A stretch of DNA of 64,000 nt from an uncultured Fibrobacterota bacterium (lineage in GTDB: Bacteria; Fibrobacterota; Chitinivibrionia; Chitinivibrionales; CAYFVL01), in NCBI GenBank assembly GCA_964419255.1, contig CAYQOU010000006.1, forward strand, positions 1,167 through 65,166, read 5' to 3'. This document shows positions 1,509 to 50,508 of this stretch, piece by piece. The stretch's first letter is position 1, and each line of letters starts with the position of its first letter. The notes under the pieces are model-generated. The model searched no databases and was not told where the DNA came from. It saw nothing but the letters and a program-made list of their open reading frames with translations. The position numbers and the translations under genes were made by a program.

Positions 1509-1976
1509 TCAATATCTCCCTCGAGATGAAATCCCCCTCCTACCATTTCCTGTAAAGGGTATTCCGTCAATGAGAATTTTAACGTATTCTCCTTTCAGAC
1601 CGTTGAGTACGATGTTTGTTTGTGTTCGTGCCGGATCAATATCAACGCCAAGTATTCCGTCGAGCATCTCCATGGCGTTGAAGAAGCCCCCGCTTTCGAT
1701 TTGCCGCTTAGTGGCGACCTCTACATCTTCCACCACCAGATCGGCACTCATCGAAGACTTACTCGCCGTCACCACCATGCGATCAAGATTCATGGCCGGA
1801 TGATCCGATTGTGAAGTATCTTTCGGGAAGGTAACGACATCGGCATCAGAGGGTTCGGTTTCTTTTTCTTTGGAACAGGCCGCTGAAATACAAAACAACG
1901 CAGACAGCAAAACCACTGGCGCGGCTGCACGCAAAACAAGGGACGAACACAAAATGATTGCCTTTCTGAACCTCAA
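1509..1976 (-). CDS. TonB-dependent receptor N-terminal fragment (signal peptide + TonB box + plug only, ~155 aa); possible btuB-like remnant
   Basis: ORF track 1509..2054. Its first 26 codons overlap the riboswitch, so I prefer TTG 1976 as start (MRFRKAIILCSSLVLRAAAPVVLLSALFCISAAC signal). It has a TonB-box/plug pattern: DRMVVTASK...VEVATKRQIE...MLDGILGVDID...IVLNGLKGEYVKILIDGIPF. It stops after the plug; there is no barrel, and only 43 nt separate it from cobQ. Confidence 0.6.
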   Translation of the reverse strand: MRFRKAIILCSSLVLRAAAPVVLLSALFCISAACSKEKETEPSDADVVTFPKDTSQSDHPAMNLDRMVVTASKSSMSADLVVEDVEVATKRQIESGGFFNAMEMLDGILGVDIDPARTQTNIVLNGLKGEYVKILIDGIPFTGNGRRGISSRGRY

Positions 1977-2008
1977 ACCATGAAGGTTCAAAAAAATATC
2001 GAAAACTC

Positions 2009-2172
2009 TTTCAGGTAGGTCTCCTGGCTTTCCCGGTGCTGTCGGCCTTCCCATCCCGCAGAGCGAGACAGTGACCTGGATTGACAGCCCCCGCGCATAC
2101 CATTAGCGCAGTATTGGGATTACAGTGGCAGGACCGCTCCGGATTCTCACCGGTATTCCCTGGCACCTGAAA
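2009..2172 (-). promoter_or_regulatory. Cobalamin (B12) riboswitch
   Basis: The minus strand reads TTTCAGGTGCCAGGGAATACCGGTGAGAATCCGGAGCGGTCCTGCCACTGTAA...GGGAAGGCCGACAGCACCGGGAAAGCCAGGAGACCTACCTGAAA. This matches the conserved core (GGTGCC, AGGGAA, CCGGTGAGAATCCGG, GCCACTG) and the B12 box (AGCCAGGAGACCT). P1 can form between TTTCAGGT and ACCTGAAA. Confidence 0.85.
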
Positions 2173-2499
2173 TGCAAGAAAAATGTAACCTAAAATAGGT
2201 TTATGTGCATAGCATTGGCAAGAGGCACACCGGATTTGCGTGATCATTTGAAAATAATGGTGTTGATGATACCTATTGCTTGAATGAGAGAAATATCTTA
2301 AAGCTACATTCGCAATTTTCACAGACAACTTCACTAAAAAAACGAAGCTGTCGCCACTTTGGACAATAGAAACCTCTTGTCTCCTCCGGCCAAGGCCTTT
2401 TGTTAAGCGGACAGGCAACAATTCCTGCCGAAAGCACGCCTCGTATAATGTATTTTACTTACCGATACTATCTTTGATTTCATGACAATTTGAGGCTCT

Positions 2500-5124: not shown

Positions 5125-7401
5125 TCAGGTATAAAGCATACGATTGGGTCTCTTCATAACCGTCAAATTTAATTCTTCACACAAATCAGCTGCGCTGCCG
5201 CCGCCTATTGAAACGCCATCGATACGGTGCACCGAAACCACACCCATGAGCGCATTGGTCATGAAAACGCAATCGGCTTTTTTCAGTTCATCAAGGGTTA
5301 TGAGGCGCGTTTCTACGGTTTCGCCCCGGGATTGCAGTAGATCGCACACTGCTTTTTCCATCGTTCCGGGAAGTACATGTTCCGAGGCAGGCCGATACCA
5401 GATACCGTCGATTATACAGAGAATATTTGCCGTAGCAGTCTCACTCACTGAGCCGTCATAGTTTAGTATAATCGCCTCATCCGCTCCCTGTTTTTTGGCC
5501 CATTGGTTGGCTATTTTGCTAAACATATAATTCATGGTTTTATGAGAAGACAGATGAGAGTACCTCCTGTTCGGATAAGCGGCACAATACAGCCCGTCCC
5601 TTCCGACAGTTTTCAGACGATGAACGTATGGCCGGGCAGTAACCATCATCGACATGGTATCTGGCTTACCCGATTCTCCGGCCGCTGCAAGTACCTTTAC
5701 AGCAGCGACATCTTCGTACAGTCCGCTACGATCAATGACCTGGCGTATAATATCATTCCAGGTAACATCGGGCGGTTCTGTCCCGAAAAAGTGCTGCCAG
5801 GATTTGTTAAACCGCTGGAGGTGCTGCTCCAGACGGCAGGGCACACCGTTTTGGACACGTATGGTTTCGAATATTCCGTACCCGTAAACAAATCCATCGC
5901 CGGTAACCGGCGCACTGATGCCCTCCAACGGCATGAACTTTCCATTGTACCATGCGATGAGGGAAGGCTTTTTACTTTTCGCGGATACTCCGCTGATTGC
6001 ATGCATCAGTGTCTGCCCCTTATGCAGCGTCTCTTCGAATTCGTCGGCCGGATCCGAATCGTACACGATACCGCCTCCAACAGAATACACAAGTCTACTG
6101 TCCTTGATTGTAGCTGTACGGATAGCGATTGACAGGTCCATTGTATCATGAAAACCAATATAGCCGATAGATCCGGTGTAGATATGACGTCGGACCGGTT
6201 CGAGTTCATCTATAATTTCCATAGATCTGATCTTCGGACAACCGGTAATCGATCCACCCGGAAACGTTGCACGAACCAAATCGACCATATCCTTATCATC
6301 GTCAAGCACACCATCAATGATAGAAACTAGATGGAATACATTTTCGTATGCTTCCACGCGCTTATGCTCACGCACCTTCACCGATCCGGCCGAGCAGACC
6401 TTCCCGATATCATTTCGTAAAAGATCAACAATCATCGACAGCTCGGCATCATCTTTACGGCTGTTTGCAAGCTGGTCCCGGTTGGCGGCGTCCTCCTGTG
6501 GTGTTTTACCCCTGGGTTTAGTACCCTTGATCGGACGGGTTTCAACACGTCTCCCACGAGCTTCAATGAATCGTTCCGGTGAAGTGGAAACGATATGATG
6601 ATCACCGGCATTAATGTAGGCAAAAAAAGGTGCCGGATTTCGTTGAAAGAGGGTAGAAAAAAGTGTGAAAGCATCGCCTTTAAAAGCCGTTTCGAACCGT
6701 TGAGACATGTTTACCTGATACACATGGCCGCGTGCGATATAATCACGTATAGTTTCGATCGAACGCATATATTCATCACGAGCGAAACCGGATTTCAAAC
6801 CGGTGCCGGTCTCGGGAGGTTTTGCTGCGCCCGCTGACACACCTTTTCTCAAGGCATACTCAAAAGATTCTATACGCTGTTGCGCATTACCGGCGGTCTC
6901 AGAAACGTATAGTGTTTTCTTTTTCTCAAAACGATCTTCAACTAAAATTATCGATGGTGCAACCATATACAGATGAGGCAGATGTAAATCCTCTATACTT
7001 GTCCTGGGAAGAACTTCTATGCAATCTTTCAGATCATAGGATAGGTAACCCATTAGACCGGCGCAAATCGGAAGCGGATATTCGGTGTCCGGCAATTTGT
7101 AGTACCGACATATGTATTGCAAAAAATTCAGAGGATCAGCCTCTATAGTCTTTGAGCATCGTTCCGATTCAATTGTTACACGATTCAGATCTGCTTTTAA
7201 TGAAAGCCACGGATGTATGCCCATGATATTGTATCGGGCACAATCGGCAGCTCCACCGCTGATGAGCGTGACGGTTCCGGGAAGGTGAGCAAATCTCGAT
7301 GCGATCTCAAGAAATGAAAGACCACTTTGCAAAGCAATCGAAACCACACGATGCGAAGGTTGGGGTAAAAATTCAAGTATCGACTCAAAAGAAGTAGTCA
7401 T
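5125..7401 (-). CDS. pabB: Aminodeoxychorismate synthase component I (PabB) fused to a class-IV aminotransferase-fold aminodeoxychorismate lyase (PabC)
   Basis: 758 aa. Chorismate-utilising enzyme motifs are present: HVYQVNMSQRF, SPERFIEARGRRVETRPIKGTKPRG, TFPGGSITGCPK. The C-terminal ~270 aa are class-IV like (GDGFVYGYGIFETIRV, VLPGTMEKAV). The start overlaps the pabA stop by 4 nt. Confidence 0.88.
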   Translation of the reverse strand: MTTSFESILEFLPQPSHRVVSIALQSGLSFLEIASRFAHLPGTVTLISGGAADCARYNIMGIHPWLSLKADLNRVTIESERCSKTIEADPLNFLQYICRYYKLPDTEYPLPICAGLMGYLSYDLKDCIEVLPRTSIEDLHLPHLYMVAPSIILVEDRFEKKKTLYVSETAGNAQQRIESFEYALRKGVSAGAAKPPETGTGLKSGFARDEYMRSIETIRDYIARGHVYQVNMSQRFETAFKGDAFTLFSTLFQRNPAPFFAYINAGDHHIVSTSPERFIEARGRRVETRPIKGTKPRGKTPQEDAANRDQLANSRKDDAELSMIVDLLRNDIGKVCSAGSVKVREHKRVEAYENVFHLVSIIDGVLDDDKDMVDLVRATFPGGSITGCPKIRSMEIIDELEPVRRHIYTGSIGYIGFHDTMDLSIAIRTATIKDSRLVYSVGGGIVYDSDPADEFEETLHKGQTLMHAISGVSAKSKKPSLIAWYNGKFMPLEGISAPVTGDGFVYGYGIFETIRVQNGVPCRLEQHLQRFNKSWQHFFGTEPPDVTWNDIIRQVIDRSGLYEDVAAVKVLAAAGESGKPDTMSMMVTARPYVHRLKTVGRDGLYCAAYPNRRYSHLSSHKTMNYMFSKIANQWAKKQGADEAIILNYDGSVSETATANILCIIDGIWYRPASEHVLPGTMEKAVCDLLQSRGETVETRLITLDELKKADCVFMTNALMGVVSVHRIDGVSIGGGSAADLCEELNLTVMKRPNRMLYT

Positions 7402-7988
7402 GTCAATCGCTCCTGAAGCGGACCCATTCTGAGAAAATTCTCGATGATTGTAAATCCATTCTCTGTAAGAAAGCTTTCCGGGTGAAACTGTACGCCATGA
7501 AGCGGAAAGACGCGGTGGGATAAGCCCATAACAACGCGATCCTCTGATCGTGCGGTGACTACCAGTTCTTTACTAACCTTATCAGCTGCAAGCGAGTGGT
7601 AACGGGCAACTATGGTGGGCAACCCGACTCCTTTGAAAAGCCCCGTTTGATTGTGTTCCACAGCACAGGTCTTGCCATGCATAGGCAAAGGTGCTCGAAC
7701 AGTTATTCCACCAAATGCTTCGTTGATACACTGCAAGCCCAGACAGACGCCAAGAATCGGAGTAGATTTGTATAATCGAAGGATTAAGTCAATAGAAATA
7801 CCGGCCGATGAGGGATCTTTGGGTCCCGGGCTGATAACAATATAATCAGGTGATCGTTGAGCTACGTCCTCGACCGAAATCTTATCTGCCCTGAATACAG
7901 ATACATCAATAGGATATGTACGAAACATCTGCACTAGATTAAAAGTGAATGAGTCGTAATTATCTATAACAAGTAGTGACCGATTCAT
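7398..7988 (-). CDS. pabA: Aminodeoxychorismate/anthranilate synthase component II (glutamine amidotransferase)
   Basis: 196 aa: LLVIDNYDSFTFNLVQMF, catalytic Cys in ILGVCLGLQC, and HGVQFHPES. Lies 12 nt downstream of the NRPS stop and overlaps pabBC. Confidence 0.9.
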   Translation of the reverse strand: MNRSLLVIDNYDSFTFNLVQMFRTYPIDVSVFRADKISVEDVAQRSPDYIVISPGPKDPSSAGISIDLILRLYKSTPILGVCLGLQCINEAFGGITVRAPLPMHGKTCAVEHNQTGLFKGVGLPTIVARYHSLAADKVSKELVVTARSEDRVVMGLSHRVFPLHGVQFHPESFLTENGFTIIENFLRMGPLQERLT

Positions 7989-8000
7989 TATCCACTTCCC

Positions 8001-11000
8001 TTACAACATAGTATACCCGCCATCGACGGGCAGGTATGTTCCTGTCATGAATTGAGAAAGATCACTTGCAAGAAAGAGTATGGCACCGGCGATATCACGC
8101 GGAAGTCCATTGCGCTGCAACGGGCAATTGGTAGCTGCAGTTTCTTTGATTTTGTTTGACATCGCCGCGGTCGCATCTGTTAAAGTTAATCCGGGAGCAA
8201 CAGTATTAATACGAACCCCATCCGGCCCCAGCTCAATAGCCAATGATCGTACGAATGCGTCAAGTGCCGATTTCGCAGCACTATGTGCGGCATACCCGGG
8301 ATGAGGATGTTTAGACATAGTGCTGGAGACGGCAATTATGCTGCCACTTTTCCGTTCGGCCATTTCAGGAATAACCTCTTGGGAAAGCAGAAAGAGCGAT
8401 TTAATTTCGTTTGTCAGTTTACGCTCGAATTCAATCCAGTTGCTCTCCTTAAACGGCTTGATTTCAAAACCGATTGCAGCGTTAGAGACGACTACGTCGA
8501 TTTTTCCATAATGACCGCGCACCTTTTCAATGAGGGACTTTACCTCCTTCGGGTCAGTCGTATCCCCTTGAAATATTTCGGCCTCTCCGCCATCCTCCTG
8601 AATGATCTCCTTTACCATCATTGCACGTTCTTCACTCTTCAGATAGTTAACAGCCACCGACGCACCCTGACTTGCAAGAAGGCGTACCGTGGCCCTGCCG
8701 ATACCACGGCTTCCACCGGTCACGAGCACAACTTTATTTTCGAGAAGTCCGGGTGCCCGCACCTGACTGATGTTGAACCCGCTTGTCCGGGTCTTTTCAA
8801 TGAATGTATCGCCATCGTCGTCTGGGGATTTATACGCATCATCCAGGCTTTCCGCAATTTCATTGAGATGAGGATATTTGAAAATATGCGAAAGACCAAT
8901 TTCTACTCCCAGGTGTTCCTTGATTCTTGCAATTAGACGAGTCGCTGACAGAGAATGGCCTCCCAGTTCAAAGAAATGAGCCCGCTTTCCGATACTGTCT
9001 TCTGCAATTTCTAGCACTTCCGACCACAACTCGGCAAGCGTCCGCTCCATTTTGGTTGTGGGAGCCTCATAGATATCACTCTGCTGAAGGATGCCGGAGG
9101 AAATTGTTAGTGCTTTACGATTAAGCTTCCCATTTGGTAATTTTGGCATCTCATCCAGGGTGATAAAAGCGGTGGGAACCATATAGGAAGGCAGTCTTTG
9201 ATCGAGGAATGCCCGTAATTGACTGATATCAATATTGTTATCCGGCTTTGGGATATAGAATGCAAGCAGCTGCCCCTTTTCTCCAACCACCGCCCGTAAG
9301 CCCATTCCCTCAAATTCACCCATCACCTTTTCCACATGGCGCACATCAACGCGAAATCCTCTAACCTTTACCTGGAAATCCCACCGCCCCATAAATTCCA
9401 GATTTCCGTCAGGAAGATAACGTACAACATCTCCAGTATTATAAATGATACCGCCATGTTCCTTACTGAATGGGTTTTGCTTGAACCGTTCCTTTGTGAT
9501 ATCGTCCAGATTATGATACCCCAGAGCCATGCCAGCTGACGCCACATGTGCTTCACCGGGTACTCCTTCCGGAACAGGTCGTCCCTGGCGATCAAGCACA
9601 TATATTTTTGTGTTCTGGATCGGTCTACCTACGGGCACAAAGCCCTGCGCGTCATCGAAATCGGTGGCATCGTAGTAGGCGATATCGTTAAGCTCGGTAC
9701 ATCCATAGTTGTTAAGCAATCGAGCCTGGGGAATGACAGATCGAAACAGTAATACGATTTCGGCGGTAAGTGGCTCCCCGGCAGTAAAACAGTAACGCAG
9801 GGAAGGAAGTGTAATGCCGGTCTTTTTCATATACGCAAGGACAGATTGCATATGTGAAGGGACCAGATTTACCCGGCTCGCATTACATTTACGAAGTGCG
9901 TCAACAAACAGGGACGGATCTTTAACCGTCTCAGTGTCAATAAAAATCAGCGGGCAGCCATTAAGCAATCCGGCAAAAATTTCTTTCACCGAAACGGCAA
10001 AAGCAATGGTAGTCTTCTGTACGATCATTTCATCGTCAGCAAAAGGCCACCTGGTTTCCATATTACTCAGCCAATTTATAAGCTGCCTGTGCGGTATTCT
10101 CGCGCCCTTTGGTATACCGGTCGAACCGGATGTGTACATCAGATATGCCAGATCATCCGGCCTTATTGATACAGTGGTCGGTGCAGGAATCTCATCATGA
10201 AAAAGCGGTAGCTTCTCCTCAACAACACAGCACGTATCCTTCGTCAGGCCAAATTGCTTTTTCTGCTTTTCTGTACATATGGTCAGTCTCGGATCGGCAT
10301 CCCGGGTAATCAGACGTAAATACTTTTCCGGATAGGATGGATCAAGGGGAACGTAGGCCGCCCCGGCTTTCCATATCGCGAGAATAGCCGCCAGTGCGGA
10401 GGCATTTCGTTCCATGCAAACAGCAACGATCTCACCCGGTTTCACGCCACGCTGAAGCAGTGTCGCCGCATATGCGTTTGCAGCCGCGGCTACATCCCTA
10501 AAGCGCCATTGTCCAAAAGAATCCAGGCAGGCAATGGCATCGGGCGTTTTAGCCACCTGTTCATCCCAACGGGTAACAAAATCAGGAAGATTTTCAATCG
10601 ACCGATTCGTCTGATTGAATTCTACAAACAAACGCCGGCGATCCGCTTCGGTAAACATTGTCAATTCAGACAGCTTTCTCTTGCCATTTTCCATCATCTC
10701 GCGCAGCAGTTGTTCATGATGTTTCAAGATATTTTTCAGAGTAGATGCATTATATAAATCCGAAGCATACATCACCTCGACTTGCAGGTCATTTCTGTTT
10801 CCGGTGTATGACAACTCGATTTCACATCGTGCGATAGCATTCTTACCCGTTGCCGTTCGGTATCCTTCATAGCCGGGGTATGAGCCAAACTTGACACCTC
10901 CGGGAAGAGAATGCTCAAGATGGGTTCGGGGAAAGTTCTGGTGACGGATAACCAGTGGTACAAGCGAACTCGTTGCATCACCGCGCTCAACCGCCGAAGA

Positions 11001-12017
11001 ATAGACGATGCGCTCGAAAGGTACGGTCTGATGATCAAAACCGCCAAGAGCAACCGAGCGCACTGCACCCATAAAATCATCGACAGTCACATCTTCGTCA
11101 ACAAAAATTCGCAATGGAAGTATGTTGACAAAAAAACCGATCATTCTTTCAACCTCCGGAAGAATCCTGCCGGAGGTTGTCGTTCCGATGCAAAGATCTT
11201 CCTTACCGGTATAACGTTTGACAGTCAATGCAAATCCGGCAAGAAGACACATAAACATCGTACACCCATGGGATTGGGCAAACCTTTCCAGTGATTCTGA
11301 AAACTCCTTGGGATAAGAATACTCCAACCTCTCACTGATACTGCCGCTGTTTGGGGTCCGCAGAAAATCGGTAGGTAATTCCAGTGATGCTTCATATCCC
11401 TCAAGGTGTTTGTGCCAATAGGCCAAATCTTTTGAATGATCAAGTTGTCTCTGCCAGTGAACAAAATCTGTATATTGAACGGGTAGTGACTCCAGCTGAT
11501 GATGCCGCCCGGCCGAAAAAGCTTCATAGAGATGCAGTAACTCAGAGAAAAGGATATTCTCTACAGACCATCCATCTGCGGCGATATGATGCACATTTAG
11601 AAGCAACAGGTGACGTTTCGGATTGATTCTGAGAAGCACACCCCTGATGATTGGCCCTTTCTCAAGATCAAATACATGGCGTGCGTTTTCTTCGATGTAA
11701 CCTTGAATGTCGCTTTCATCAATGTCGATAAGAGGTAGTGAAAAGTCGCTCCTTTCTGTGATTATCTGCACCATTTCCCCATGAGCATTTGTCGTAAAAC
11801 ATGCCCTCAACGTTTCATGCCGATTCAGTATTTCTGTAAGACTCCTGTTTAAAGCAGAAACATCCAGGCTTCCTTCAAGAACAAACACCACGGGAATATC
11901 ATAGCTGAGGTCCTGGGGATTTTTACGTTTAAGCAACCACATCCTCTCCTGAAACCATGAGAGTGGATGTTCTTTGGCCTCCCGTTTAACCGGTACTATA
12001 GTCGTTCTTTGAGTCAT
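8001..12017 (-). CDS. Single-module non-ribosomal peptide synthetase: condensation - adenylation - carrier protein - C-terminal SDR (FabL/FabI-like) domain
   Basis: C domain: SWFQERMWLL, RHETLRACF, HHIAADGWS. A domain: WKAGAAYVPLD, LAYLMYTSGSTGIPKG, A4 = IAFAVSVKEIF, NNYGCTE, YNTGDVVRY, GRWDFQVKVRGFRV, NGKLNRKAL. T domain: FFELGGHSLS. SDR: VVLVTGGSRGIG, SNAAIG, GYAAHSAAKSAL. The track ORF starts at TTG 12041; ATG 12017 with a GGAGG 9 nt upstream is more likely. Confidence 0.92.
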   Translation of the reverse strand: MTQRTTIVPVKREAKEHPLSWFQERMWLLKRKNPQDLSYDIPVVFVLEGSLDVSALNRSLTEILNRHETLRACFTTNAHGEMVQIITERSDFSLPLIDIDESDIQGYIEENARHVFDLEKGPIIRGVLLRINPKRHLLLLNVHHIAADGWSVENILFSELLHLYEAFSAGRHHQLESLPVQYTDFVHWQRQLDHSKDLAYWHKHLEGYEASLELPTDFLRTPNSGSISERLEYSYPKEFSESLERFAQSHGCTMFMCLLAGFALTVKRYTGKEDLCIGTTTSGRILPEVERMIGFFVNILPLRIFVDEDVTVDDFMGAVRSVALGGFDHQTVPFERIVYSSAVERGDATSSLVPLVIRHQNFPRTHLEHSLPGGVKFGSYPGYEGYRTATGKNAIARCEIELSYTGNRNDLQVEVMYASDLYNASTLKNILKHHEQLLREMMENGKRKLSELTMFTEADRRRLFVEFNQTNRSIENLPDFVTRWDEQVAKTPDAIACLDSFGQWRFRDVAAAANAYAATLLQRGVKPGEIVAVCMERNASALAAILAIWKAGAAYVPLDPSYPEKYLRLITRDADPRLTICTEKQKKQFGLTKDTCCVVEEKLPLFHDEIPAPTTVSIRPDDLAYLMYTSGSTGIPKGARIPHRQLINWLSNMETRWPFADDEMIVQKTTIAFAVSVKEIFAGLLNGCPLIFIDTETVKDPSLFVDALRKCNASRVNLVPSHMQSVLAYMKKTGITLPSLRYCFTAGEPLTAEIVLLFRSVIPQARLLNNYGCTELNDIAYYDATDFDDAQGFVPVGRPIQNTKIYVLDRQGRPVPEGVPGEAHVASAGMALGYHNLDDITKERFKQNPFSKEHGGIIYNTGDVVRYLPDGNLEFMGRWDFQVKVRGFRVDVRHVEKVMGEFEGMGLRAVVGEKGQLLAFYIPKPDNNIDISQLRAFLDQRLPSYMVPTAFITLDEMPKLPNGKLNRKALTISSGILQQSDIYEAPTTKMERTLAELWSEVLEIAEDSIGKRAHFFELGGHSLSATRLIARIKEHLGVEIGLSHIFKYPHLNEIAESLDDAYKSPDDDGDTFIEKTRTSGFNISQVRAPGLLENKVVLVTGGSRGIGRATVRLLASQGASVAVNYLKSEERAMMVKEIIQEDGGEAEIFQGDTTDPKEVKSLIEKVRGHYGKIDVVVSNAAIGFEIKPFKESNWIEFERKLTNEIKSLFLLSQEVIPEMAERKSGSIIAVSSTMSKHPHPGYAAHSAAKSALDAFVRSLAIELGPDGVRINTVAPGLTLTDATAAMSNKIKETAATNCPLQRNGLPRDIAGAILFLASDLSQFMTGTYLPVDGGYTML

Positions 12018-12068
12018 TGTACATTTGCCTCCGAAAAGCAAATCGTGTTGCTTTCTCCATTAAATATC

Positions 12069-12094
12069 TGAATTAAATATCTGATGCTGATTAA
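12069..12094. repeat. Perfect tandem duplication of a 13-nt unit (ATTAAATATCTGA x2) just upstream of the NRPS start
   Basis: Read directly: 12069-12081 and 12082-12094 are identical and abutting. They lie ~50 nt upstream of ATG 12017, inside a ~575-nt AT-rich untranslated region. Confidence 0.9.
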
Positions 12095-12593
12095 CGAAAT
12101 TATATAATAAGTGCTTAATTTCAGTGATGTTATCCTAAACAAATCATTCTTTATTATGAGCACGATACATGATCTTCGTCGATATATCATTCTACCAGTA
12201 TCGCACAAGTTACCAAAATCAAGGTGCTGTATTCAATCACTCTTAAGAATCTGTAACCTTTTTGTTCCAAAGGTAGTCCAGAGCTGTGATGATAAATCGT
12301 TCAATTATACATGCGGATACTGCAGTTATTTATACTCACTCACAATTGGCCACGATCCGTTTCGGCTATGTAAAATACCTATTTAACTCCATGAAAAAGC
12401 AATATATATCCTGCCTGTTTGTGAGGGACATTGGATGAGAATGAGATATTACGAAATTCACTCGCAAAAGAGCATACATCTCCTCTGATAAGCTTATCTA
12501 TCAGTTAGACTTATCATTCTATGTCTTCTCGATTAGCAAAAAGTAAATACTGCGCACAATTAGGCGGTGTTTGGATACCCGGGATCTTCCCGA

Positions 12594-14195
12594 TCAATGA
12601 TTCCTCTCCCCCTCTCCCATTATTTTCACCAGTACTTCTTTTATCTGATCGAAGCCAAAGGGCTTTTGCAGAAAGCCTTTGGCGCCATTCTCGATTGCAT
12701 GTTGTACGTTTTCAGTCAGCGTGTAGCCCGAAACCATGATAGCATTGATTTGCGGGTCGATTTCCTTGAGTTTAAAAAAAGTTCTCCCACCATCCATACC
12801 CGGCATAACCATGTCAATAAATACCGCCCGTATATCTCTGTGTTTATCTCGAAACACAGATACTGCCTCTTCTCCACTGTCCGCAACCATGACGCTATAA
12901 CCCAGAGAGCTGATCATATCCTTTATGGTCTGCGATACATCCCTGTCATCGTCTACTATCAGAATTTGCTCTTCTCGAACACTATTCAGAAATACATTCT
13001 TCTTTTTATCACCAGCTGAAACCTTATTGGTGATCGGCAGATACAGGTTGAAGGTAGTCCCTTTTCCTAATGTACTATCCACGGTAATCGCCCCACCATG
13101 ACTCTTGGCAATTCCATATACGGCGGCCAACCCCATACCGGTGCCCTTATTTTCCTTTTTTGTGGTGAAAAACGGTTCAAAAATATGGTCCAACACATCT
13201 TTCTCGATTCCGGTTCCGGTATCCTTTACCGAAACTACTACATAATTGCCAGTCTGAAAGGTAAAGCTCAGATCCCTGCCGAAATTCTGATCAAGGTGTT
13301 GGTTGAATGTTTCGATGGTTAGAATGCCACCATCGGGCATTGCATCTCGGGCGTTAAGTGCAAGATTCAGAATTGCATTCTGCAGATGTGAAGCACCGCC
13401 CCAGACATAGGGAGAAGCCGCTTCAGTCAACGATTGAATAGTAATATTCTTTTGCATGCTTCTGTTAAGCAGGTTTATCGTTTCGACGACTATACTGTTG
13501 ATATCAACCACCTGCTGATCATACATCCCCTGCCTGGAGAAAGCCAGAAGCTGTTTCGTTAAATCGGCGGATCTTTTACCCGAGTTATAAATCTGATTGA
13601 GTACCCTCTTAGCCTCCGAGCTCATTTCATGTCTGTTCAGAAGAAACTCACAATATCCCTGAATGATTGTCAGATGGTTATTGAAATCGTGAGCAACACC
13701 ACCGGCAAGCTGCCCGACCGCTTCCATTTTTTCTATCTGATGCAGCCGGGCATTGGCTTTCTCAAGCTCCTGGGTCCTTTTTGAAACCATATCCTCAAGG
13801 TTATTCTTATATTCCTCCAATCTCCTCTCAGCCTTTAGTCGCTCGGTGTTCTCTTTTTGAAGTTTACGAATAAGGGAACTTATGGTACCGATCACTATTG
13901 CAAACAGTATATGCATAATATTGCCCAACACCGATTCCATACTGAGAATATCATACGTCTGTATGTTTATCGTCTCTATAATCGTTGCGGTCAGAAATCT
14001 ACTGATGGCATGCATGATAAGTCCGGGAATGATTCCCCACCACCAGGCGATAAAGAAAATCGGTATCAACCCCAGATTAGCCGCCATCGTGCTTTCTGCG
14101 GCAGCAAAAGACACCCAGAACGCCAGGGAATACAGAACCGACAGAATGACTATGGTTAATGTACAACTCCTGAGAGGTGGTTTAATGATACTCAT
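12594..14195 (-). CDS. Hybrid sensor histidine kinase / response regulator (membrane N-terminus, HisKA, HATPase, C-terminal REC)
   Basis: 533 aa. Four predicted TM helices with the WWWGIIPG motif, then a coiled coil. H-box VAHDFNNHLTII, N/G boxes LNLALNARDAMP, DTGTGI, GTGMGLA. REC: ILIVDDDRDV...VFIDMVMPGMDG. Confidence 0.9.
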   Translation of the reverse strand: MSIIKPPLRSCTLTIVILSVLYSLAFWVSFAAAESTMAANLGLIPIFFIAWWWGIIPGLIMHAISRFLTATIIETINIQTYDILSMESVLGNIMHILFAIVIGTISSLIRKLQKENTERLKAERRLEEYKNNLEDMVSKRTQELEKANARLHQIEKMEAVGQLAGGVAHDFNNHLTIIQGYCEFLLNRHEMSSEAKRVLNQIYNSGKRSADLTKQLLAFSRQGMYDQQVVDINSIVVETINLLNRSMQKNITIQSLTEAASPYVWGGASHLQNAILNLALNARDAMPDGGILTIETFNQHLDQNFGRDLSFTFQTGNYVVVSVKDTGTGIEKDVLDHIFEPFFTTKKENKGTGMGLAAVYGIAKSHGGAITVDSTLGKGTTFNLYLPITNKVSAGDKKKNVFLNSVREEQILIVDDDRDVSQTIKDMISSLGYSVMVADSGEEAVSVFRDKHRDIRAVFIDMVMPGMDGGRTFFKLKEIDPQINAIMVSGYTLTENVQHAIENGAKGFLQKPFGFDQIKEVLVKIMGEGERNH

Positions 14196-14303: not shown

Positions 14304-15887
14304 TCATGAAGAAATAGACACCAGCGTCTTTTTCAACTGCTCATAACTGAAAGGCTTTTGCAAAAATACTGCGGCCCCATTATCCAGTGCATGTTGAACA
14401 TTTTTAGTCACCGAAAACCCGGATATTATCACCGCCCTTATATCCGGGTTTATTTCCTTAAGCTTTGTGAATGTCTGCCCTCCATCCATACCGGGCATGA
14501 GCATATCTATGAAAACATATGTTATGTCTTTGTGTTTGCCGCGATACAATGAAACCGCTTCCTCACCGCTGCCCGCAACCAGGACCCGATAGCCAAGCCC
14601 CTTAAGCATTTGCCTGATTGTCTGAGAGACCTGCTGGTCATCATCCACAATTAGCACCTGCTCATCATAAGTTGTGCCCAATGTCAGGTTTTCCTTTTCA
14701 TATTTTTCAGCCCGTTTTTGCGTTACGGGAAGATACAGGAGAAAAGAGGTTCCCTCACCGATTTTTGAGTCAACGGTGATGGCTCCCCCGTGACTCTTTG
14801 CAATCCCGTATACCGCTGCCAATCCCATCCCCGTGCCCTGCTGCTCTTTTTTAGTCGTGAAAAACGGCTCGAAAATATGGTCAATCACCCCTTCTTCGAT
14901 TCCCGTTCCGCTATCCACAACAGAAACAACAACATAGTCGCCAGGCTGAAATGAAAACCCATGAACCTGACCAAGCGATTCGTCGAGGGATTTATTCTCT
15001 GTCTTTATGGTCAACACTCCCCCGTTCGGCATAGCATCGCGCGCATTGAGAGCCAGATTCAGTACTGCGTTCTGAAGTTGTGCGGAACCTCCCCATACCC
15101 AGGGATACGTCGCCTCAGATAACGGTATGAGCGTAATGTTCTTATGTATACTTCGCGAAAGAAGATTTGCCGTTTCATTGACGACTTCATTCATATCGAC
15201 AACCTGCATTTCGTACATTCCCCGACGGGAAAATGCCAGCAGCTGTCTGGTAAGATCGGCCGATCTTCTCCCCGAGTGATTGATCTGCTTAAGCACCCTT
15301 CTCAATTCCGGATCCAGTTCTGTTCGCCCAAGAAGAAACTCGCAATAGCCCTGAATAATAGTCAGATTGTTGTTGAAATCATGAGCGATACCACCCGCCA
15401 GCTGTCCAATAGCTTCCATCTTTTCAATCTGATGTAGCCTCCTGTTTGCACTATCAAGCTCCCGGGTTCTGAGTGCGACGAGTTCCTCGAGATTGGCCTT
15501 GTACTCCTTAAGCATATCCTCGGCCTTTCTCCTTTCCTCCACTTCCCGCTGAAGTCTGCGAATGAGAGCGCTAAACGAGCCAACCACCACCGCAGACATG
15601 ATATACATGCCCGTCCCCAGAACGCTTTGTAAGCTTAGGATTCCATGAGTTTCAACATCTGCGAAGGAAATCATTATCGATGTCCATACAGTATTCACGC
15701 ATTGCATTATGATTCCCGGAATGATCCCCCACCACCAGGAAACGAAGAATACCGGGATGAGGCTGAAGGCTGTCACGATAGTATCTTCAACCAAATTAAA
15801 ACAGGTGTAGAATATGGCCGCATAAAGAAAGGAAAAAATGAGGATAGAAAATGCAGGGCTTTTAAATGGAGGCTGAATTCTTATCAT
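14304..15887 (-). CDS. Hybrid sensor histidine kinase / response regulator, tandem paralogue of 12594..14195
   Basis: Same architecture, and by eye ~75% identical across the kinase core (IAHDFNNNLTIIQGYCEFLL, GTGMGLAAVYGIAKSHGGAITVDS). The track ORF begins at 16013. By parallel with the paralogue (MSIIKPPLRS vs MIRIQPPFKS), ATG 15887 is the likelier start. Confidence 0.88.
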   Translation of the reverse strand: MIRIQPPFKSPAFSILIFSFLYAAIFYTCFNLVEDTIVTAFSLIPVFFVSWWWGIIPGIIMQCVNTVWTSIMISFADVETHGILSLQSVLGTGMYIMSAVVVGSFSALIRRLQREVEERRKAEDMLKEYKANLEELVALRTRELDSANRRLHQIEKMEAIGQLAGGIAHDFNNNLTIIQGYCEFLLGRTELDPELRRVLKQINHSGRRSADLTRQLLAFSRRGMYEMQVVDMNEVVNETANLLSRSIHKNITLIPLSEATYPWVWGGSAQLQNAVLNLALNARDAMPNGGVLTIKTENKSLDESLGQVHGFSFQPGDYVVVSVVDSGTGIEEGVIDHIFEPFFTTKKEQQGTGMGLAAVYGIAKSHGGAITVDSKIGEGTSFLLYLPVTQKRAEKYEKENLTLGTTYDEQVLIVDDDQQVSQTIRQMLKGLGYRVLVAGSGEEAVSLYRGKHKDITYVFIDMLMPGMDGGQTFTKLKEINPDIRAVIISGFSVTKNVQHALDNGAAVFLQKPFSYEQLKKTLVSISS

Positions 15888-16373
15888 CGCGAAATTTTTC
15901 GTCTTGGATATGCTGGTTCCCAAATGATGGTCAATAATATACTTATTGAGAGAATAGAATGCACAGATGCCCCCCCAAAAAAGACTCAAAAGCTTGAAAC
16001 AATAAACATACACTCAACTGCGCGATTTTCTATCGGCGATTCGCTCAACTCCTGAAAACTTGAGAGCTTCAGCGATCTTGAAATTTCTTGGACGGCTATT
16101 CCGCACGACTGCCCCATTGCCTCAAATGCTTCTGTACTCCCGGGATTGCGCGATTCAGCCCCCCAACGCAATGTTTATGGCAGGGTAAAGTTATATTTTT
16201 TTGGCAGCAGAATGTGAGGCTATGAAGGCCAAACAGGCACCACATGGAGCAGTTTTGGAAACAAAACAGCCGTAACATTATAAGCAGAGTTTGCTGAATT
16301 GCCGCGGGTGAAAAGAAACCGCATCCTGTTACTCCGCGAGAATCATTGTTCCATGGCCTGTTGTAGAAAATGC

Positions 16374-26862: not shown

Positions 26863-27666
26863 CTATCCACCCTTCAAGCAAGCATTTAATGAGCCGGAAA
26901 CATAACCAATCGGATCAAAGGCTACATAGGCAAATCCTGCTTGTTTACATATTGAACTGATTCGGTCACGCATTCGCCAGGCCTCCTCCAGCCTTCGCGC
27001 CTCAATTTCAATCCGCGCACATTCTCCATGAACCCTCACCCGCACAGCATCGAAACCATGTCGGCGAATCCCCTGCTCGGCAACCTCCACTTTCCTTAAC
27101 ATTTCTTCTGTTATCCTGTTTCCGTATGGAATACGGGATCCGAGACAGGCGCCCGACGGTTTTTGTGCCGATGGTAACATGTAACGTTCAGAAAGCCGCC
27201 GAATTTCATCTTTAGTGAACCCCGCCTGAGAAAGTGGCGAAACAACTCCTGCCTCCTTCACCGCCTTCAAACCGGGCCGGTAGTCGGTCTGGTCATCCCG
27301 ATTACTGCCGTCGAAAAGCACATCACATGAGAGTTTTTTCGCCTCCTGCATGATCCGCAGCAGTATCACCTTCTTGCAATGGTAGCACCGATCAGGGGGG
27401 TTTTCCGCCACGGAAGACACTGCCAGTTCATCCAGCGGGATCAGATGATGCGAAAGCCCCAGTTGGGAAGCAAATGCAACCGCATCGCGCCGTTCCCAGT
27501 CAGGTGTCATGTGCAAAGATACCGTAAACAACTCAACTTTGCTCTCACCTAGTATGATTTTTGCCGCGGCTGCCAAAAGGGTACTGTCTACACCGCCGGA
27601 AAACGCTATAGCCACCTTATTGTAGGAACCGATAATCGCCCGAAGCTTTTTTTCCTTATCATTCAT
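26863..27666 (-). CDS. larE: LarE-like PP-loop ATP pyrophosphatase / sulfur transferase (TIGR00268-type), three-cysteine variant
   Basis: KVAIAFSGGVDSTLLAAAA (PP-loop), DRCYHCKK, DYRPGLKA, SGACLGSRIPYG, VRVRVHGECARIEI. Track start is 27747. ATG 27666 overlaps the thiF stop (ATGAATGA) and matches the N-termini of homologues. Confidence 0.8.
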   Translation of the reverse strand: MNDKEKKLRAIIGSYNKVAIAFSGGVDSTLLAAAAKIILGESKVELFTVSLHMTPDWERRDAVAFASQLGLSHHLIPLDELAVSSVAENPPDRCYHCKKVILLRIMQEAKKLSCDVLFDGSNRDDQTDYRPGLKAVKEAGVVSPLSQAGFTKDEIRRLSERYMLPSAQKPSGACLGSRIPYGNRITEEMLRKVEVAEQGIRRHGFDAVRVRVHGECARIEIEARRLEEAWRMRDRISSICKQAGFAYVAFDPIGYVSGSLNACLKGG

Positions 27667-28426
27667 TATCGTTTCCCTTTCCGCATGCCCGACAGGCAGG
27701 TCGTCGTCTGACAGGGACGCGTCGAAATTCCATGGCAACACCATCAAAGGTTAGGAGCGTATCAGTCAGCAGTCTTCCGAATTGTGCGATATGTTTGATA
27801 CACTCCGTTGCCTGAATGGTACCGATAGTTCCCGCTACAGCCCCCAAGATACCGATGGTGCTGCTCTGATGCACGGCATCTTCCGGTGGCGGTGCGGAAA
27901 AGATACATCTGTAGCAGGCCGATTGACCGGGAACCACCGTCATTGTCTGACCTCCCAGACGAATCACTCCTGCATGACTAAAGGGAATACCCTTTCTCAC
28001 GCAGGCATCGTTGATAAGAAATTTGCTGATAAAACTATCTGTTGCATCAATGACAAACTGGTAGCCCTCTAACACATTGTCAATAGAATGTTCATCAAGG
28101 TGTAATGTATGTTGATTAATTTTAATATGCGGATTGAATTCGGCCACTTTACTTTCGGCGGAAGCGGTTTTAAACTCGCCGATATCGTCCGTGAAATGAA
28201 TTATCTGTCGGTTCAGATTGGACATATCAACCCGGTCGTGATCGGCTATTCCAAGGGTTCCCACTCCGGCTGCAGCCAGGTACAAAATAGCCGGCGAACC
28301 GAGCCCGCCGGCCCCGACCACAAGAACCCGCCCCCGGGCAAGTCTTTTCTGTCCCTCGATTCCGATCTCCGGCACTTTTATGGTGCGGTCGTATCGGGTT
28401 TTCTGAGCATCGGACAGTTTCTTCAT
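27659..28426 (-). CDS. thiF: ThiF/MoeB/HesA-family E1-like adenylyltransferase
   Basis: RYDRTIKVPEIGIEGQKRL, VLVVGAGGLGSPAILYLAAAGVG, DMSNLNRQ, and Zn-site pairs CYRC and CRAC. 4-nt overlap with cysE. Confidence 0.85.
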   Translation of the reverse strand: MKKLSDAQKTRYDRTIKVPEIGIEGQKRLARGRVLVVGAGGLGSPAILYLAAAGVGTLGIADHDRVDMSNLNRQIIHFTDDIGEFKTASAESKVAEFNPHIKINQHTLHLDEHSIDNVLEGYQFVIDATDSFISKFLINDACVRKGIPFSHAGVIRLGGQTMTVVPGQSACYRCIFSAPPPEDAVHQSSTIGILGAVAGTIGTIQATECIKHIAQFGRLLTDTLLTFDGVAMEFRRVPVRRRPACRACGKGNDNE

Positions 28427-29346
28427 GAGCCGGCTTTCGATTTACGGCCGATAACGGCCCCAGGCTCCACCGAACTGGTGATCCAGGTGTTGGCACCGAT
28501 GATCGCCGCTTTACCGATAACGGTCTTTCCGCCAAGTATTGTAGCATTTGCATAGATGATCACATCATCCTCGATGTCCGGGTGACGCTTAACACCTCGG
28601 GCAGGACTCCCCTCCTTGTCGAAAGGGGATGTCGCCCCGAGAGTAACCCCCTGATACACCTTCACATTGCGCCCGATAGTACAGGTTTCTCCGATTACCA
28701 CTCCCGTTCCATGATCTATGAAAAAGCGCGGACCGATCGTAGCTCCCGGATGAATGTCGATACCGGTTCTGGAATGGGCACGTTCGGACATAATACGGGG
28801 GATAATCGGAACATCAAGACGGTAAAGCTTATGCGCTATGCGATGAGTGGCAATCGCCTCAACACACGGATAGCTGAGAACGATTTCATCCAAAGATGTA
28901 GCGGCCGGATCCCCATCATAGGCGGCTTTTATGTCCTCCAGCAAAACAGCACGAATAGCCGGAAGTGATTCGATAAACGCCATCAGAGACTCTTCGGCCT
29001 TGCTCTGGCAGGTGCAGTTATCACAATTTCTCTTCAGACACCGATACTTAAACGACTCCCGGATGTGTTTTCCCAGTTTGAAGCTGATGTGGCGAAGGAT
29101 ATCTCCCAGATAGAAATTCATATCCCCCAGCGCCACGCTTTCCCGACCGTAACAGCCGGGAAACAATGCCGCCAGAATATCATCTAGCACTGTGTATATC
29201 TCGTTTCGCCCCGCAAGATCGAGCCCTTCGTGTGAAGCGATGCTGAAATCCTCCAGAATACTTTTCTCCAGTTTTCCAACCACCTCCGGAAGTATTCTGT
29301 TAAACCACATATCAATGGGTTGCCTATTCTTTTCATTCATTGTCAT
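28423..29346 (-). CDS. cysE: Serine O-acetyltransferase (long N-terminal form)
   Basis: Left-handed beta-helix hexapeptide region: GIDIHPGATIGPRFFIDHGTGVVIGETCTIGRNVKVYQGVTLG...IEDDVIIYANATILG. Confidence 0.88.
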   Translation of the reverse strand: MTMNEKNRQPIDMWFNRILPEVVGKLEKSILEDFSIASHEGLDLAGRNEIYTVLDDILAALFPGCYGRESVALGDMNFYLGDILRHISFKLGKHIRESFKYRCLKRNCDNCTCQSKAEESLMAFIESLPAIRAVLLEDIKAAYDGDPAATSLDEIVLSYPCVEAIATHRIAHKLYRLDVPIIPRIMSERAHSRTGIDIHPGATIGPRFFIDHGTGVVIGETCTIGRNVKVYQGVTLGATSPFDKEGSPARGVKRHPDIEDDVIIYANATILGGKTVIGKAAIIGANTWITSSVEPGAVIGRKSKAGS

Positions 29347-29389
29347 TCCCCGTTAATGCTCAGGTGCACTGTTGACAAATATGATGCAC

Positions 29390-30283
29390 TTAGTAGGTCG
29401 TGGACTCGTGTATCTGCCTGATCCACTCCTGAAACAGTGCGGTGCGGTGTCCCCGCCAGCGGTTTACCGGCTCGGTCATATCGAAATTGTCCGGCTCTGC
29501 CGCCTTGTTTCCATACACCTCCTTGTCATGCGTATACTGCTCGACCAGAGTTGACGCCTCATATTCTGGATTACCAAAATGCATAAGAAACCGCTGATCC
29601 GCCGTTTCCGCCATCACATAACCTACCCCGGGTGCATACGCGAGAAGATTAAGCGCCCCCTTCTCACGCTCAAGCTCCAGCATTTCGTCGGCCACCCCTG
29701 AGTGACGTGACTGAGGACACCAGAACGTATCATCCATCGCCCCCATGATATGGTGATCATCAACCAGATTATCTGTTTCGTACACACCGAAAAGCTTCTT
29801 TTTGTAATCTTCCCGGGGAATACCAAGAAAAGCCGCTATACCCAGCGCTCCCCAGCATATCCCAAGAGTGGCGGGTATATGTTTGCGCGCATAGTCCAGT
29901 ATGCGACATATCTCCTGCCAGTAGTCAAGTCTCTCAAACGGCACCCCAACCACAGGTGATCCTGTCAATAGTAACCCATCCAACCCGGCGGATTCTATCG
30001 CCTTGTCAAATACCACATAGTCACTTTCCAGATGGTCGATATCCTTTTTCTTATAAACACGATTTTCCAGCTTGATCCATACCGGCTCTATCTGCATGAC
30101 TGAATGGCCCATCGGATGAAGAATACTGCTTTCGTATTCCTCCTGCTGGGAGAAAATGTTAAGTATTCCGATCCGCAAGGCCCGTATGTCCGCATGCCGG
30201 GCCTCCTCCTGCGTAAGAAATGGTATACGTCGCTGCTTAAAGGCGGTCTCGGTCTGATCTCTTTTGGGTAAAACAATTGTCAT
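29390..30283 (-). CDS. metA: Homoserine O-acyltransferase, MetA family (copy 1)
   Basis: IRALRIGILNI, LLLTGSPV, catalytic Cys in TLGICWGALG, then PQSRHSG and FGNPEY. Track start is 30313; ATG 30283 (MTIVLPK) parallels the paralogue's MTVVLPQ. Confidence 0.85.
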   Translation of the reverse strand: MTIVLPKRDQTETAFKQRRIPFLTQEEARHADIRALRIGILNIFSQQEEYESSILHPMGHSVMQIEPVWIKLENRVYKKKDIDHLESDYVVFDKAIESAGLDGLLLTGSPVVGVPFERLDYWQEICRILDYARKHIPATLGICWGALGIAAFLGIPREDYKKKLFGVYETDNLVDDHHIMGAMDDTFWCPQSRHSGVADEMLELEREKGALNLLAYAPGVGYVMAETADQRFLMHFGNPEYEASTLVEQYTHDKEVYGNKAAEPDNFDMTEPVNRWRGHRTALFQEWIRQIHESTTY

Positions 30284-30511
30284 AGTCTGTTCCTGCTCAA
30301 AAAAACAATCCAAACCAACAGTGAGCGATTCTCTCGCGGCTTTTCTCTCAATCCTTGAGGTATAAGGGCATGATCACATCGCACAACAACCACAAATCGC
30401 ATCTCACGAGTGCACGACAGCTACAATAATTCTGTCCAAAGGGATTGCACGATTCATCAGCTTAATACCGTTTAATTCGGGTGTATCCCCCATAACATTA
30501 CAACTAGAGCA

Positions 30512-30535
30512 GGAGACGCGAACAGTCGCGCCTCC
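30512..30535 (-). other. Stable intercistronic hairpin between metY and metA (no U-tract)
   Basis: Minus strand GGAGGCGCGA-CTGT-TCGCGTCTCC forms a 10-bp stem (one G.U pair), ~25 nt after the metY stop. It is followed by ~230 nt of untranslated spacer. Confidence 0.6.
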
Positions 30536-30558
30536 CGGACACTTCACTGAAAATACAA

Positions 30559-31842
30559 TTATGCACTCTTGAGTGCCTGCTCCAGATCCTCCAGAAGATC
30601 ATCCACATGCTCAATTCCCACTGAAAGGCGAACCAGGTCGGGAGTCAAGCCTGCCTCCTTTGCCTGCTGCCTGGTCAGCTGGGAATGGGTGGTGCTCTGC
30701 GGATGAATCGCCAGACTCCTGGCGTCCCCCACATTCGCCAGATGGGAAAAAAGCCTTAGAGCCTCGATGAACTTCACCCCCGAATCATGCCCCCCTTTAA
30801 GCCCGAAAACCACCACGCCCCCGAAACCGTTTTCAAGCTGCTTGGAGGCTGTCTGATGGGAGGGATCATCCTCAAGCCCCGGGTATCGTATCCAGCTTAC
30901 CTTAGGATGATCGGCAAGGTATCGGGCTACCGCCAGCGCGTTGTCGCAATGCTTCTGCATGCGAAGGGGCAGGGTCTCGATACCCTGGAGAAACATCCAG
31001 GCGTTATCGGGACTTATGCACGCCCCGAGATTACGCAACGGCACAAGCCTCATCCGAAGAATATAGGCTAGCGAAGCCAGCTCCCCGAGGTCATGTCCGA
31101 ATCGCAGATCGTGATAGGAGGACTCCGGATCGTTATAAAGACTGAATTTCCGGTCTGTCCAGTCAAACTTTCCGCTGTCGACAACGATTCCGCCGATTCC
31201 CGTACCGTGGCCACCCAGCCACTTCGTCAACGAATGCACCACGATATCCGCACCATGATCAAGCGGCCGGAAAAGATACGGCGTGGTGAATGTCGAGTCG
31301 ACGATCAGCGGTAGATGATGCCTTCGGGCGACGGCCGAAATCGCCTCGATATGCGCCACATCAAGCACGGGATTGCCGATCACCTCGGTATACAGAGCAC
31401 GGGTCCTGTCGGTAATAGCCTCTTCGAAATTGTGCGGAGCCGCAGGATCGACAAAAGTCGTTTTAATCCCAAAGCCGGGAAGAATATCGTTAAGCATGGT
31501 AAAGGAGCCGCCATACAGATTGCGAGCCGATACAACCTCGTCACCCTGTTTGCAGATGTTTACAATGCTGTAGAATACCCCCGATGTCCCGGAGGCCACC
31601 GCCAATGCCGCCGCGCCGTTTTCGAGGGTAGCCATGCGCTGCTCCAGCACGTCTTGTGTCGGATTTTGCAGTCGGGTATAGATATTGCCCAGCTCCTTGA
31701 GACCAAAGAGATTGGCCGCGTGTTCGGCACTTTTGAACAGATACGAGCTTGTCCGGTGAACCGGAACGGCTCTGGCACCGGTTTCATCGACGCGTGCTCC
31801 TGCATGAAGCACCTGCGTTTCCAGCCTGTGTTGTTTACCCAT
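30559..31842 (-). CDS. metY: O-acetylhomoserine sulfhydrylase (aminocarboxypropyltransferase), PLP-dependent
   Basis: 427 aa: TQVLHAG, YTRLQNPT, and PLP-lysine motif VHSLTKWLGGHGTGIGG. Confidence 0.9.
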   Translation of the reverse strand: MGKQHRLETQVLHAGARVDETGARAVPVHRTSSYLFKSAEHAANLFGLKELGNIYTRLQNPTQDVLEQRMATLENGAAALAVASGTSGVFYSIVNICKQGDEVVSARNLYGGSFTMLNDILPGFGIKTTFVDPAAPHNFEEAITDRTRALYTEVIGNPVLDVAHIEAISAVARRHHLPLIVDSTFTTPYLFRPLDHGADIVVHSLTKWLGGHGTGIGGIVVDSGKFDWTDRKFSLYNDPESSYHDLRFGHDLGELASLAYILRMRLVPLRNLGACISPDNAWMFLQGIETLPLRMQKHCDNALAVARYLADHPKVSWIRYPGLEDDPSHQTASKQLENGFGGVVVFGLKGGHDSGVKFIEALRLFSHLANVGDARSLAIHPQSTTHSQLTRQQAKEAGLTPDLVRLSVGIEHVDDLLEDLEQALKSA

Positions 31843-31918
31843 TATATAGCTCCCTTCGGAGAAAATGACGCATTTCCATTATTATTTCGGCGATTTTATC
31901 TCTTCATGTCGTTTACTC

Positions 31919-35120: not shown

Positions 35121-35129
35121 GACAAAAAC

Positions 35130-36124: not shown

Positions 36125-36141
36125 ATATGTCAATCCCTTAT

Positions 36142-50447: not shown

Positions 50448-50508
50448 TGTGGTTTTTTTTATCCAAAACAACATATACGAAAAACCTTTTTGAAGGGAGA
50501 ATTAGCCG

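Follow-up and report, generated by a model that had tools for sequence, protein, structure and literature searches.

Genome mining of a contig from an uncultured Fibrobacterota bacterium, of which a stretch of 64,000 nucleotides (the 64-kb window) was analyzed, revealed a compact three-gene locus on the reverse strand. Therein, a single-module nonribosomal peptide synthetase (NRPS), composed of condensation (C), adenylation (A), carrier (T), and short-chain dehydrogenase/reductase (SDR) domains, is followed by pabA and a pabB-pabC fusion (pabBC). PabA, PabB, and PabC together convert chorismate into 4-aminobenzoate (PABA). Based on the sequence evaluation, we consider it probable, although by a fair distance not certain, that the locus directs, as a self-contained cassette, the biosynthesis of a PABA-derived amide metabolite. 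The genes and domains are as follows.

8001..12017 (-): NRPS gene with the domain order C-A-T-SDR, 1338 aa from the ATG at 12017
10629..11975 (-): C domain of the elongation type, HHIAADG intact (Condensation, 4e-93)
9126..10565 (-): A domain, pocket A-V-K-N-F-A-N-D-I-K, predicted substrate PABA
8850..9041 (-): T domain with GGHSL (PP-binding, 4e-17)
8004..8735 (-): SDR domain, FabG-like classical SDR with the NADP(H) motif TGGSRGIG, tetrad N-S-Y-K changed to E-S-H-K
7398..7988 (-): pabA, 196 aa, class I glutamine amidotransferase of aminodeoxychorismate synthase
5125..7401 (-): pabBC fusion, 758 aa
6019..7317 (-): PabB region of pabBC (component I of aminodeoxychorismate synthase), carrying the PIKGT lysine
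5221..5877 (-): PabC-like region of pabBC, a pyridoxal phosphate domain of fold type IV with an HKT lysine

Architecture of the cassette

Domains were called by Pfam and gene families by curated models with cut-offs (TIGR/NCBIfam). The Pfam matches are far beyond chance for the NRPS (Condensation 4e-93, AMP-binding 6e-76, PP-binding 4e-17, adh_short_C2 4e-62) as well as for PabA (GATase, 2e-51) and the fusion protein (Chorismate_bind 1e-90, Aminotran_4 5e-51). In accordance with a first-pass annotation of the window, the core residues of all three NRPS domains were found (HHIAADG, the A3/A5/A7/A8/A10 motifs, and GGHSL), and Pfam detected no thioesterase (TE), no NAD_binding_4 reductase (R) domain, and no second C domain or module in the protein. 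The NRPS thus carries none of the domains, i.e., TE, R, or terminal C, by which chain release is commonly recognized. The arrangement of three same-strand genes packed head to tail was reproduced as well, with 12 nt separating the NRPS stop codon (8001-8003) from the pabA start (7988) and with a 4-nt overlap of pabA and pabBC (7398-7401).

Substrate pocket of the adenylation domain

Pocket positions of the A domain were mapped via alignment to LgrA and by standard anchor motifs. Asp235 is the residue binding the alpha-amino group of the substrate in A domains. Here, the segment FAVSVKE aligns with FDISVAE of LgrA, replacing Asp235 by Ala; therefore, the domain is expected to bind no alpha-amino acid. 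It scores 362 against TIGR01733 (cut-off 317), and the core motifs YTSGSTGxPKG, NNYGCTE, YNTGD, GRWDFQVKVRGFR, and PNGK, including the A10 lysine, are kept across the NRPS family. This family is tight (~1340 aa, at least 50% identity over the full length), and all of its statistics given in the following refer to 117 full-length members. Ala235 is present in 115 of them and Lys239, Asn322, Asp330, and Lys517 are each invariant (117/117), with position 299 being variable.

As a control set, we examined 1209 A domains from ~230 unrelated large NRPSs. It comprised 78 non-family loci out of 80 retrieved by a whole-protein-alignment scan of genome contigs, which had responded to generic NRPS motifs (the remaining 2/80 being true members), and giant multi-module proteins obtained by an A-domain search of protein representatives, which was ranked by summed score and is uninformative on nearest neighbors. 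Asp235 was found in 1161 of the 1209 control domains, and only two domains of the entire set showed a pocket similar to the one described here, namely one each in the NRPSs P0175 (VPKNTANDIK) and L066 (VVKFVANDTK). Both are accompanied by PABA-synthesis genes: a PabB-PabC fusion (with PMKGT) and then pabA lie directly upstream of the L066 NRPS, and P0175 is directly preceded by a glutamine amidotransferase gene and a PabB with PIKGT. Among the 78 control loci, L066 was the only one with pab-like genes (0 in the other 77). Consequently, this pocket type and PABA-synthesis genes go together in three independent contexts. According to the lapcin paper (PMC8837603), Ala235 is likewise present in the known A domains specific for PABA. 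Taking together Ala235, the near-invariant family pocket, and the restriction of this pocket, within the control set, to the vicinity of pab genes, the data support that the A domain adenylates PABA and loads it onto the T domain, as had been proposed in the first-pass annotation.

Loss of Asp235 excludes alpha-amino acids only, and the pocket was read against LgrA. In combination with the putative nature of the lyase role of the PabC-like domain (see below), this would be compatible with activation of another non-alpha-amino acid, e.g., 4-hydroxybenzoate, anthranilate, aminodeoxychorismate, or a keto acid; the pab genes would then be linked to the NRPS only indirectly. We regard this as quite unlikely, considering that the accompanying genes in all three contexts are of the PabB type (Lys274-type, not TrpE-type) and that a para-amino group would be matched by Asp330 and Asn322, located at the pocket bottom. 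Another candidate, p-aminophenylalanine, was rejected, given a pocket without Asp235 and an operon encoding neither a mutase nor a dehydrogenase. The PABA code of albicidin, which we take to be AVKYVANDAK (7/10 match), is unverified and was given no weight.

As a side observation, two multi-module NRPS clusters with one PABA-like module each and with adjacent pabA and PabB genes were located in L066 (4024-20425, from a Burkholderiaceae metagenome-assembled genome (MAG); VVKFVANDTK) and in L166/L167 (7740-26974; VPKNTANDIK). These clusters are likely producers of PABA-containing peptides.

Conservation of the gene order

The first-pass annotation had suggested a dedicated PABA supply and named synteny in relatives as a way to examine it. 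This suggestion was supported: in a first survey, the order NRPS-pabA-pabBC was present in ~27 of 36 informative loci, these being metagenome contigs with enough downstream sequence, and of five further loci examined, four had it as well. The same order with the same 4-nt overlap was found in a complete Fibrobacterota genome (CP064986.1) and in a Polyangiaceae MAG, and the flanking genes of the Fibrobacterota and Polyangiaceae cassettes are all different. Thus, the cassette is seen in two phyla, Fibrobacterota and Polyangia. It is widespread in soil and wetland metagenomes. All-against-all clustering of the neighboring open reading frames (ORFs) revealed nothing conserved besides the pab genes.

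This distribution bears on the simplest objection, already raised as a caveat in the first-pass annotation, that ordinary folate pab genes are located behind an unrelated NRPS in one operon by coincidence. In favor of this objection, no second pab set was found within the 64-kb window, which also contains no further NRPS paralogue. Furthermore, the two parts of the cassette also occur separately, with a stand-alone PabBC orthologue (54% identity) lacking NRPS and pabA in L172 and a close relative with an NRPS lacking pab genes in L170. However, because the gene order recurs in distant phyla with every flanking gene different, chance co-transcription appears largely refuted, and the pocket of the A domain is of the non-alpha-amino, PABA-associated kind. 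We therefore assign a very low probability to this explanation.

The surroundings of individual family members showed further, non-conserved associations. In close relatives, pabBC is immediately followed by a gene for an Sfp-type phosphopantetheinyl transferase (L169, 14880-15524 (-)), by a major facilitator superfamily (MFS) transporter gene (L168, 15283-16458), or by genes for a pirin and an MFS transporter (L171, 9265-11539), the transferase gene speaking in favor of the proposed cassette. A subgroup without pab genes (L095, L097, L099, L101, L103) has an extracytoplasmic function (ECF) sigma factor, a tetratricopeptide repeat (TPR) protein, and a solute-binding protein upstream in common, and in L095 an arylamine N-acetyltransferase is encoded 3.5 kb downstream.

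PABA supply genes

The assignment of the supply genes as pab genes was corroborated by curated models. PabA exceeds the cut-off of TIGR00566 (trpG_papA; 177.5 vs. 121) and the PabB part that of TIGR00553 (pabB; 355.8 vs. 328.4), with trpE_most remaining under its own cut-off. The lysine of the PIKGT motif (Lys274-type) is a mark of aminodeoxychorismate synthases, anthranilate synthases having Ala at this position; the motif is present in the translated PabB part. For the PabC-like domain, we infer the role of an aminodeoxychorismate lyase because it is fused to PabB.

Condensation domain and proposed mechanism

Both His residues and the Asp of the HHxxxDG motif are present in all 117 family members, as is the phosphopantetheine-bearing Ser of the T domain. 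The nearest solved structures of the C domain are the elongation domains of Txo2, Txo1, and TycC6, with starter C domains scoring far lower. In a comparison with 1140 C domains of the control set, the best match was the L066 C domain located directly upstream of the PABA-like A domain (293.8 bits vs. 282.4 for the runner-up). This match points to an origin of the C-A pair in an elongation module with carrier-bound PABA as acceptor. The modules around the PABA-like module are ordinary amino-acid modules in both L066 and P0175. Because the closest C relative sits just upstream of a PABA-like A domain, T-bound PABA is probably also the acceptor of the C domain in the present cassette.

On this basis, the following route can be proposed. 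PabA and the PabB domain would convert chorismate to 4-amino-4-deoxychorismate, from which the fused PabC-like domain would release PABA. The A domain would adenylate PABA and load it on the T domain, and the elongation-type C domain would then transfer the acyl group of a thioester donor to the aromatic amine of the T-bound PABA. The simplest donor would be a second PABA thioester (PABA-S-T) on another protomer, leading to PABA-PABA oligomers; an acyl-coenzyme A (acyl-CoA) or an acylated acyl carrier protein (acyl-ACP) may serve alternatively. PABA-S-T is favored because no other carrier or A domain is conserved in the cassette. The first-pass annotation had expected the partner to be supplied in trans; since the cassette is self-contained, this partner need not be another protein.

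The self-contained nature of the cassette, the absence of a conserved second carrier, and the absence of TE and R domains would also be in line with an aminolytic release, in which the C domain uses PABA-S-T as the donor and passes the PABA on to a free amine or alcohol of primary metabolism, e.g., an amino acid or a polyamine. The resulting PABA amide or ester would require no TE, the SDR would prepare or modify the acceptor, and the donor and release problems would be solved together. In contrast, with the C domain placed before the A and T domains of its module, as in this NRPS, it is the acceptor site that the T domain serves; the closest C relative has a PABA-like module as acceptor, and no acceptor can be named. 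We thus consider aminolysis rather unlikely and retain carrier-bound PABA as the acceptor.

The C-terminal SDR domain

The SDR domain occupies the usual place of a release domain. It shares 35-37% identity and the same fold with FabG. Its structure model is of moderate quality (predicted local distance difference test, pLDDT, 72), and the fold matches only FabG and enzymes of the 7-alpha-hydroxysteroid dehydrogenase (7-alpha-HSDH) type. Alignment to FabG of S. aureus revealed the catalytic Tyr replaced by His and the Asn by Glu, with Ser and Lys retained. Across the 117 members, the tetrad positions are occupied by Glu (117), Ser (117), His (87) or Gln (30), and Lys (117), Tyr being found in none, and the TGGSRGIG motif is kept in 116-117. 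In addition, the SDR is the most conserved domain of the NRPS (0.75). Because the NADP(H) motif, Ser, Lys, and the highest conservation are kept and Tyr and Asn are gone, the domain is predicted to be functional but no canonical ketoreductase. The earlier designation as an SDR is refined accordingly, the domain being no standard ketoreductase. A comparable domain was absent from the ~230 other large NRPSs, P0175 having a TE at that position.

The domain descends from FabG, which acts on carrier-protein-bound substrates and forms tetramers. In the cassette, the SDR may catalyze an NADPH-dependent reaction of a non-canonical kind on the tethered product, perhaps a reductive release, or it may serve as an oligomerization scaffold that keeps the modules together and lets them act on each other. 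Two other types of chemistry were examined and rejected. A hydrolase-like Ser-His-Glu triad was ruled out by the presence of Gln in place of His in 30 of the 117 members, and FabI-like enoyl reductase chemistry via Tyr-x6-Lys by the replacement of the Tyr of the window protein with Phe in eight of 13 aligned members.

The reductive variant deserves separate consideration. Here, the SDR would take over the task of a terminal R domain, the (N-acyl-)4-aminobenzoyl thioester on the T domain being reduced to the aldehyde with NADPH. The position of the domain and its retained NADP(H) motif, Ser, and Lys are consistent with this, and loss of the Tyr proton donor could halt the reaction at the aldehyde stage. 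However, known thioester reductases are extended SDRs (NAD_binding_4, PF07993) with a Tyr-Lys pair, whereas the present domain is a classical SDR without Tyr and has no PF07993 match. Moreover, the E-S-H-K tetrad is shared by a family of stand-alone SDRs without a carrier protein nearby. Consequently, a reductive release of this kind appears unlikely to us.

This large stand-alone family (~249 aa; L108 2334-3086, P0391-P0510, L174, and L175) is annotated as FabG and carries E-S-H-K in 120 of 120 sampled members, none of which scored above the cut-off of a curated NCBIfam equivalog. In two contexts an MFS gene adjoins, giving no functional clue. By its sequence, the NRPS SDR domain belongs with this family.

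A second architecture was also encountered: P0075 represents a 961-aa A-T-SDR protein without a C domain (69% identity, 20 member sequences), which could be a naturally occurring variant or could result from a split gene call.

Points weighing against the proposed route

Several findings count against the PABA cassette proposed above. About one quarter of the NRPS family members have no adjacent pab genes; neither the pocket nor the SDR variant differs in these members, which presumably rely on pab genes at other genomic sites. In respect to the PabC-like domain, every lyase model remained under its cut-off, with scores similar to those of branched-chain aminotransferases (BCAT) and D-amino-acid aminotransferases (DAAT). 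For a C domain that precedes the T domain of its own module, the donor is usually delivered by a further carrier, of which none is conserved in the vicinity of the family loci. Finally, the occurrence of Gln instead of His in the SDR tetrad of 30 of the 117 members argues against His as a catalytic base.

Start codon, leader, and genomic surroundings

According to the ORF listing, the longest NRPS ORF spans 8001..12041 (-) and encodes 1346 aa from a TTG at 12041. The ATG at 12017 is the more likely start, because it is preceded by GGAGG (12031-12027) and because the NRPS of the window is a 100% match to a public 1338-aa protein of a Chitinispirillaceae MAG. Therefore, 12094, initially given as the end of the locus, falls into the leader, outside the gene.

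12018..12593 (-): untranslated leader of the NRPS gene, 576 nt, AT-rich, including the ribosome-binding site (RBS) GGAGG at 12031-12027

The leader reaches back to the stop codon of an upstream kinase gene. The first-pass annotation had described it as an AT-rich untranslated region of ~575 nt, in agreement with the measured length and with a GC content of 0.35 in 12001-12500, compared with 0.45-0.51 in the genes. A search of the 576 nt for riboswitches and conserved RNAs returned no Rfam match, comparison with the leaders of five relatives showed only the RBS to be conserved, and promoter-like matches were no more common than in shuffled sequence. At 12054-12079, the RBS is closely preceded by a 13-nt tandem direct repeat (TCTCCATTAAATA / TCTGAATTAAATA, + strand), and a perfect 12-nt palindrome (GATAAGCTTATC) is found farther up the leader at 12487-12498. 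Either could serve as an operator site; both are short enough to occur by chance.

Directly upstream of the leader and on the same strand, tandem paralogous hybrid histidine kinases with the domain order DUF4118-HisKA-HATPase-REC are encoded at 12594-14195 (-) and 14304-16013 (-). In L098 and L104, a kinase gene likewise immediately precedes the NRPS, and in L169 one is found at a distance of 2.4 kb upstream. The kinases may regulate the cassette, or their position may be due to chance.

The remaining window contains housekeeping genes at 27659-37035 and 49335-53665, among them those for ThiF, ThiG, and ThiH-like proteins for two paralogues of homoserine O-succinyltransferase (29390-30313 and 36142-37035), and for the T and P proteins of the glycine cleavage system. 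This neighborhood indicates that the organism uses folate. On the other side of the cassette, a cobalamin riboswitch (1997-2208 (-), 74 bits) precedes a 181-aa ORF (1509-2054 (-)) with only the Plug domain of a TonB-dependent receptor, the receptor gene thus appearing truncated or frameshifted.

Significance and comparison with known systems

Albicidin, the cystobactamids, and lapcin are examples of PABA-based peptides that potently inhibit topoisomerases. To our knowledge, only few PABA-using pathways have been described, and the phyla hosting the cassette, Fibrobacterota and Polyangia, are hardly explored for natural products. It is conceivable, and put forward here tentatively, that the cassette gives rise to a new class of small PABA-derived molecules, e.g., short p-benzamide oligomers or N-acyl-PABA, from many uncultured members of both groups, and that the E-S-H/Q-K SDR constitutes a new terminal domain of NRPSs, which either performs a non-canonical NADPH-dependent release or assembles single modules into an iterative machine. 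The cassette bears on the question of how a lone C-A-T module gains its donor and releases its product, as well as on the role of a Tyr-less SDR at the end of an NRPS and that of the stand-alone E-S-H-K “FabG” family. With three genes in ~6.9 kb it is minimal and, thus, easy to express and assay.

Neither a paper describing the combination of C-A-T-SDR and pab genes nor a curated family for it was found, in congruence with the first-pass annotation, which had not recognized it as a characterized system; its product is apparently undescribed. The cassette would work like the PABA modules known from albicidin, cystobactamid/coralmycin, and lapcin biosynthesis, which by description likewise have Ala235, in-cluster PABA genes, and a C domain acylating the amine of carrier-bound PABA. 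These assembly lines, however, are built of several PABA modules and include a TE, PABA-tailoring enzymes, and a pentapeptide-repeat resistance gene, whereas the cassette consists of a single module with a terminal FabG-like domain and lacks a TE as well as tailoring and resistance genes. A Pfam survey of the larger ORFs of the window also revealed no PABA-tailoring or pentapeptide-repeat resistance genes. The cassette is therefore not a member of the albicidin/cystobactamid-type assembly lines. The multi-module NRPSs L066 and P0175 share the pocket type and the adjacent pabA and PabB(-PabC) genes, with the L066 C domain being the closest relative, but their PABA-like module is placed among amino-acid modules, they have no SDR, and P0175 ends in a TE.

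Carboxylic acid reductases (CARs) and fungal A-T-R(-SDR) enzymes, e.g., the glycine betaine reductase ATRR, are single-module enzymes that activate non-alpha-amino acids and have terminal NAD(P)H-dependent SDR-type domains. These lack a C domain and use an extended SDR with Tyr-Lys; because it combines a C domain with a classical SDR without Tyr, the NRPS of the window is neither CAR- nor ATRR-type. In comparison with FabG and classical SDR ketoreductases, the SDR domain has the same fold, the TGxSRGIG motif, and Ser and Lys, and differs by the exchange of Asn for Glu and of Tyr for His/Gln. Rhabdopeptide NRPSs, in turn, differ from the cassette by their docking domains, a separate terminal C domain for release, and the use of ordinary amino acids. 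Being stand-alone iterative C-A-T enzymes that pass their product to another copy, they nevertheless provide the precedent needed for the proposed formation of PABA homo-oligomers by the cassette described here.

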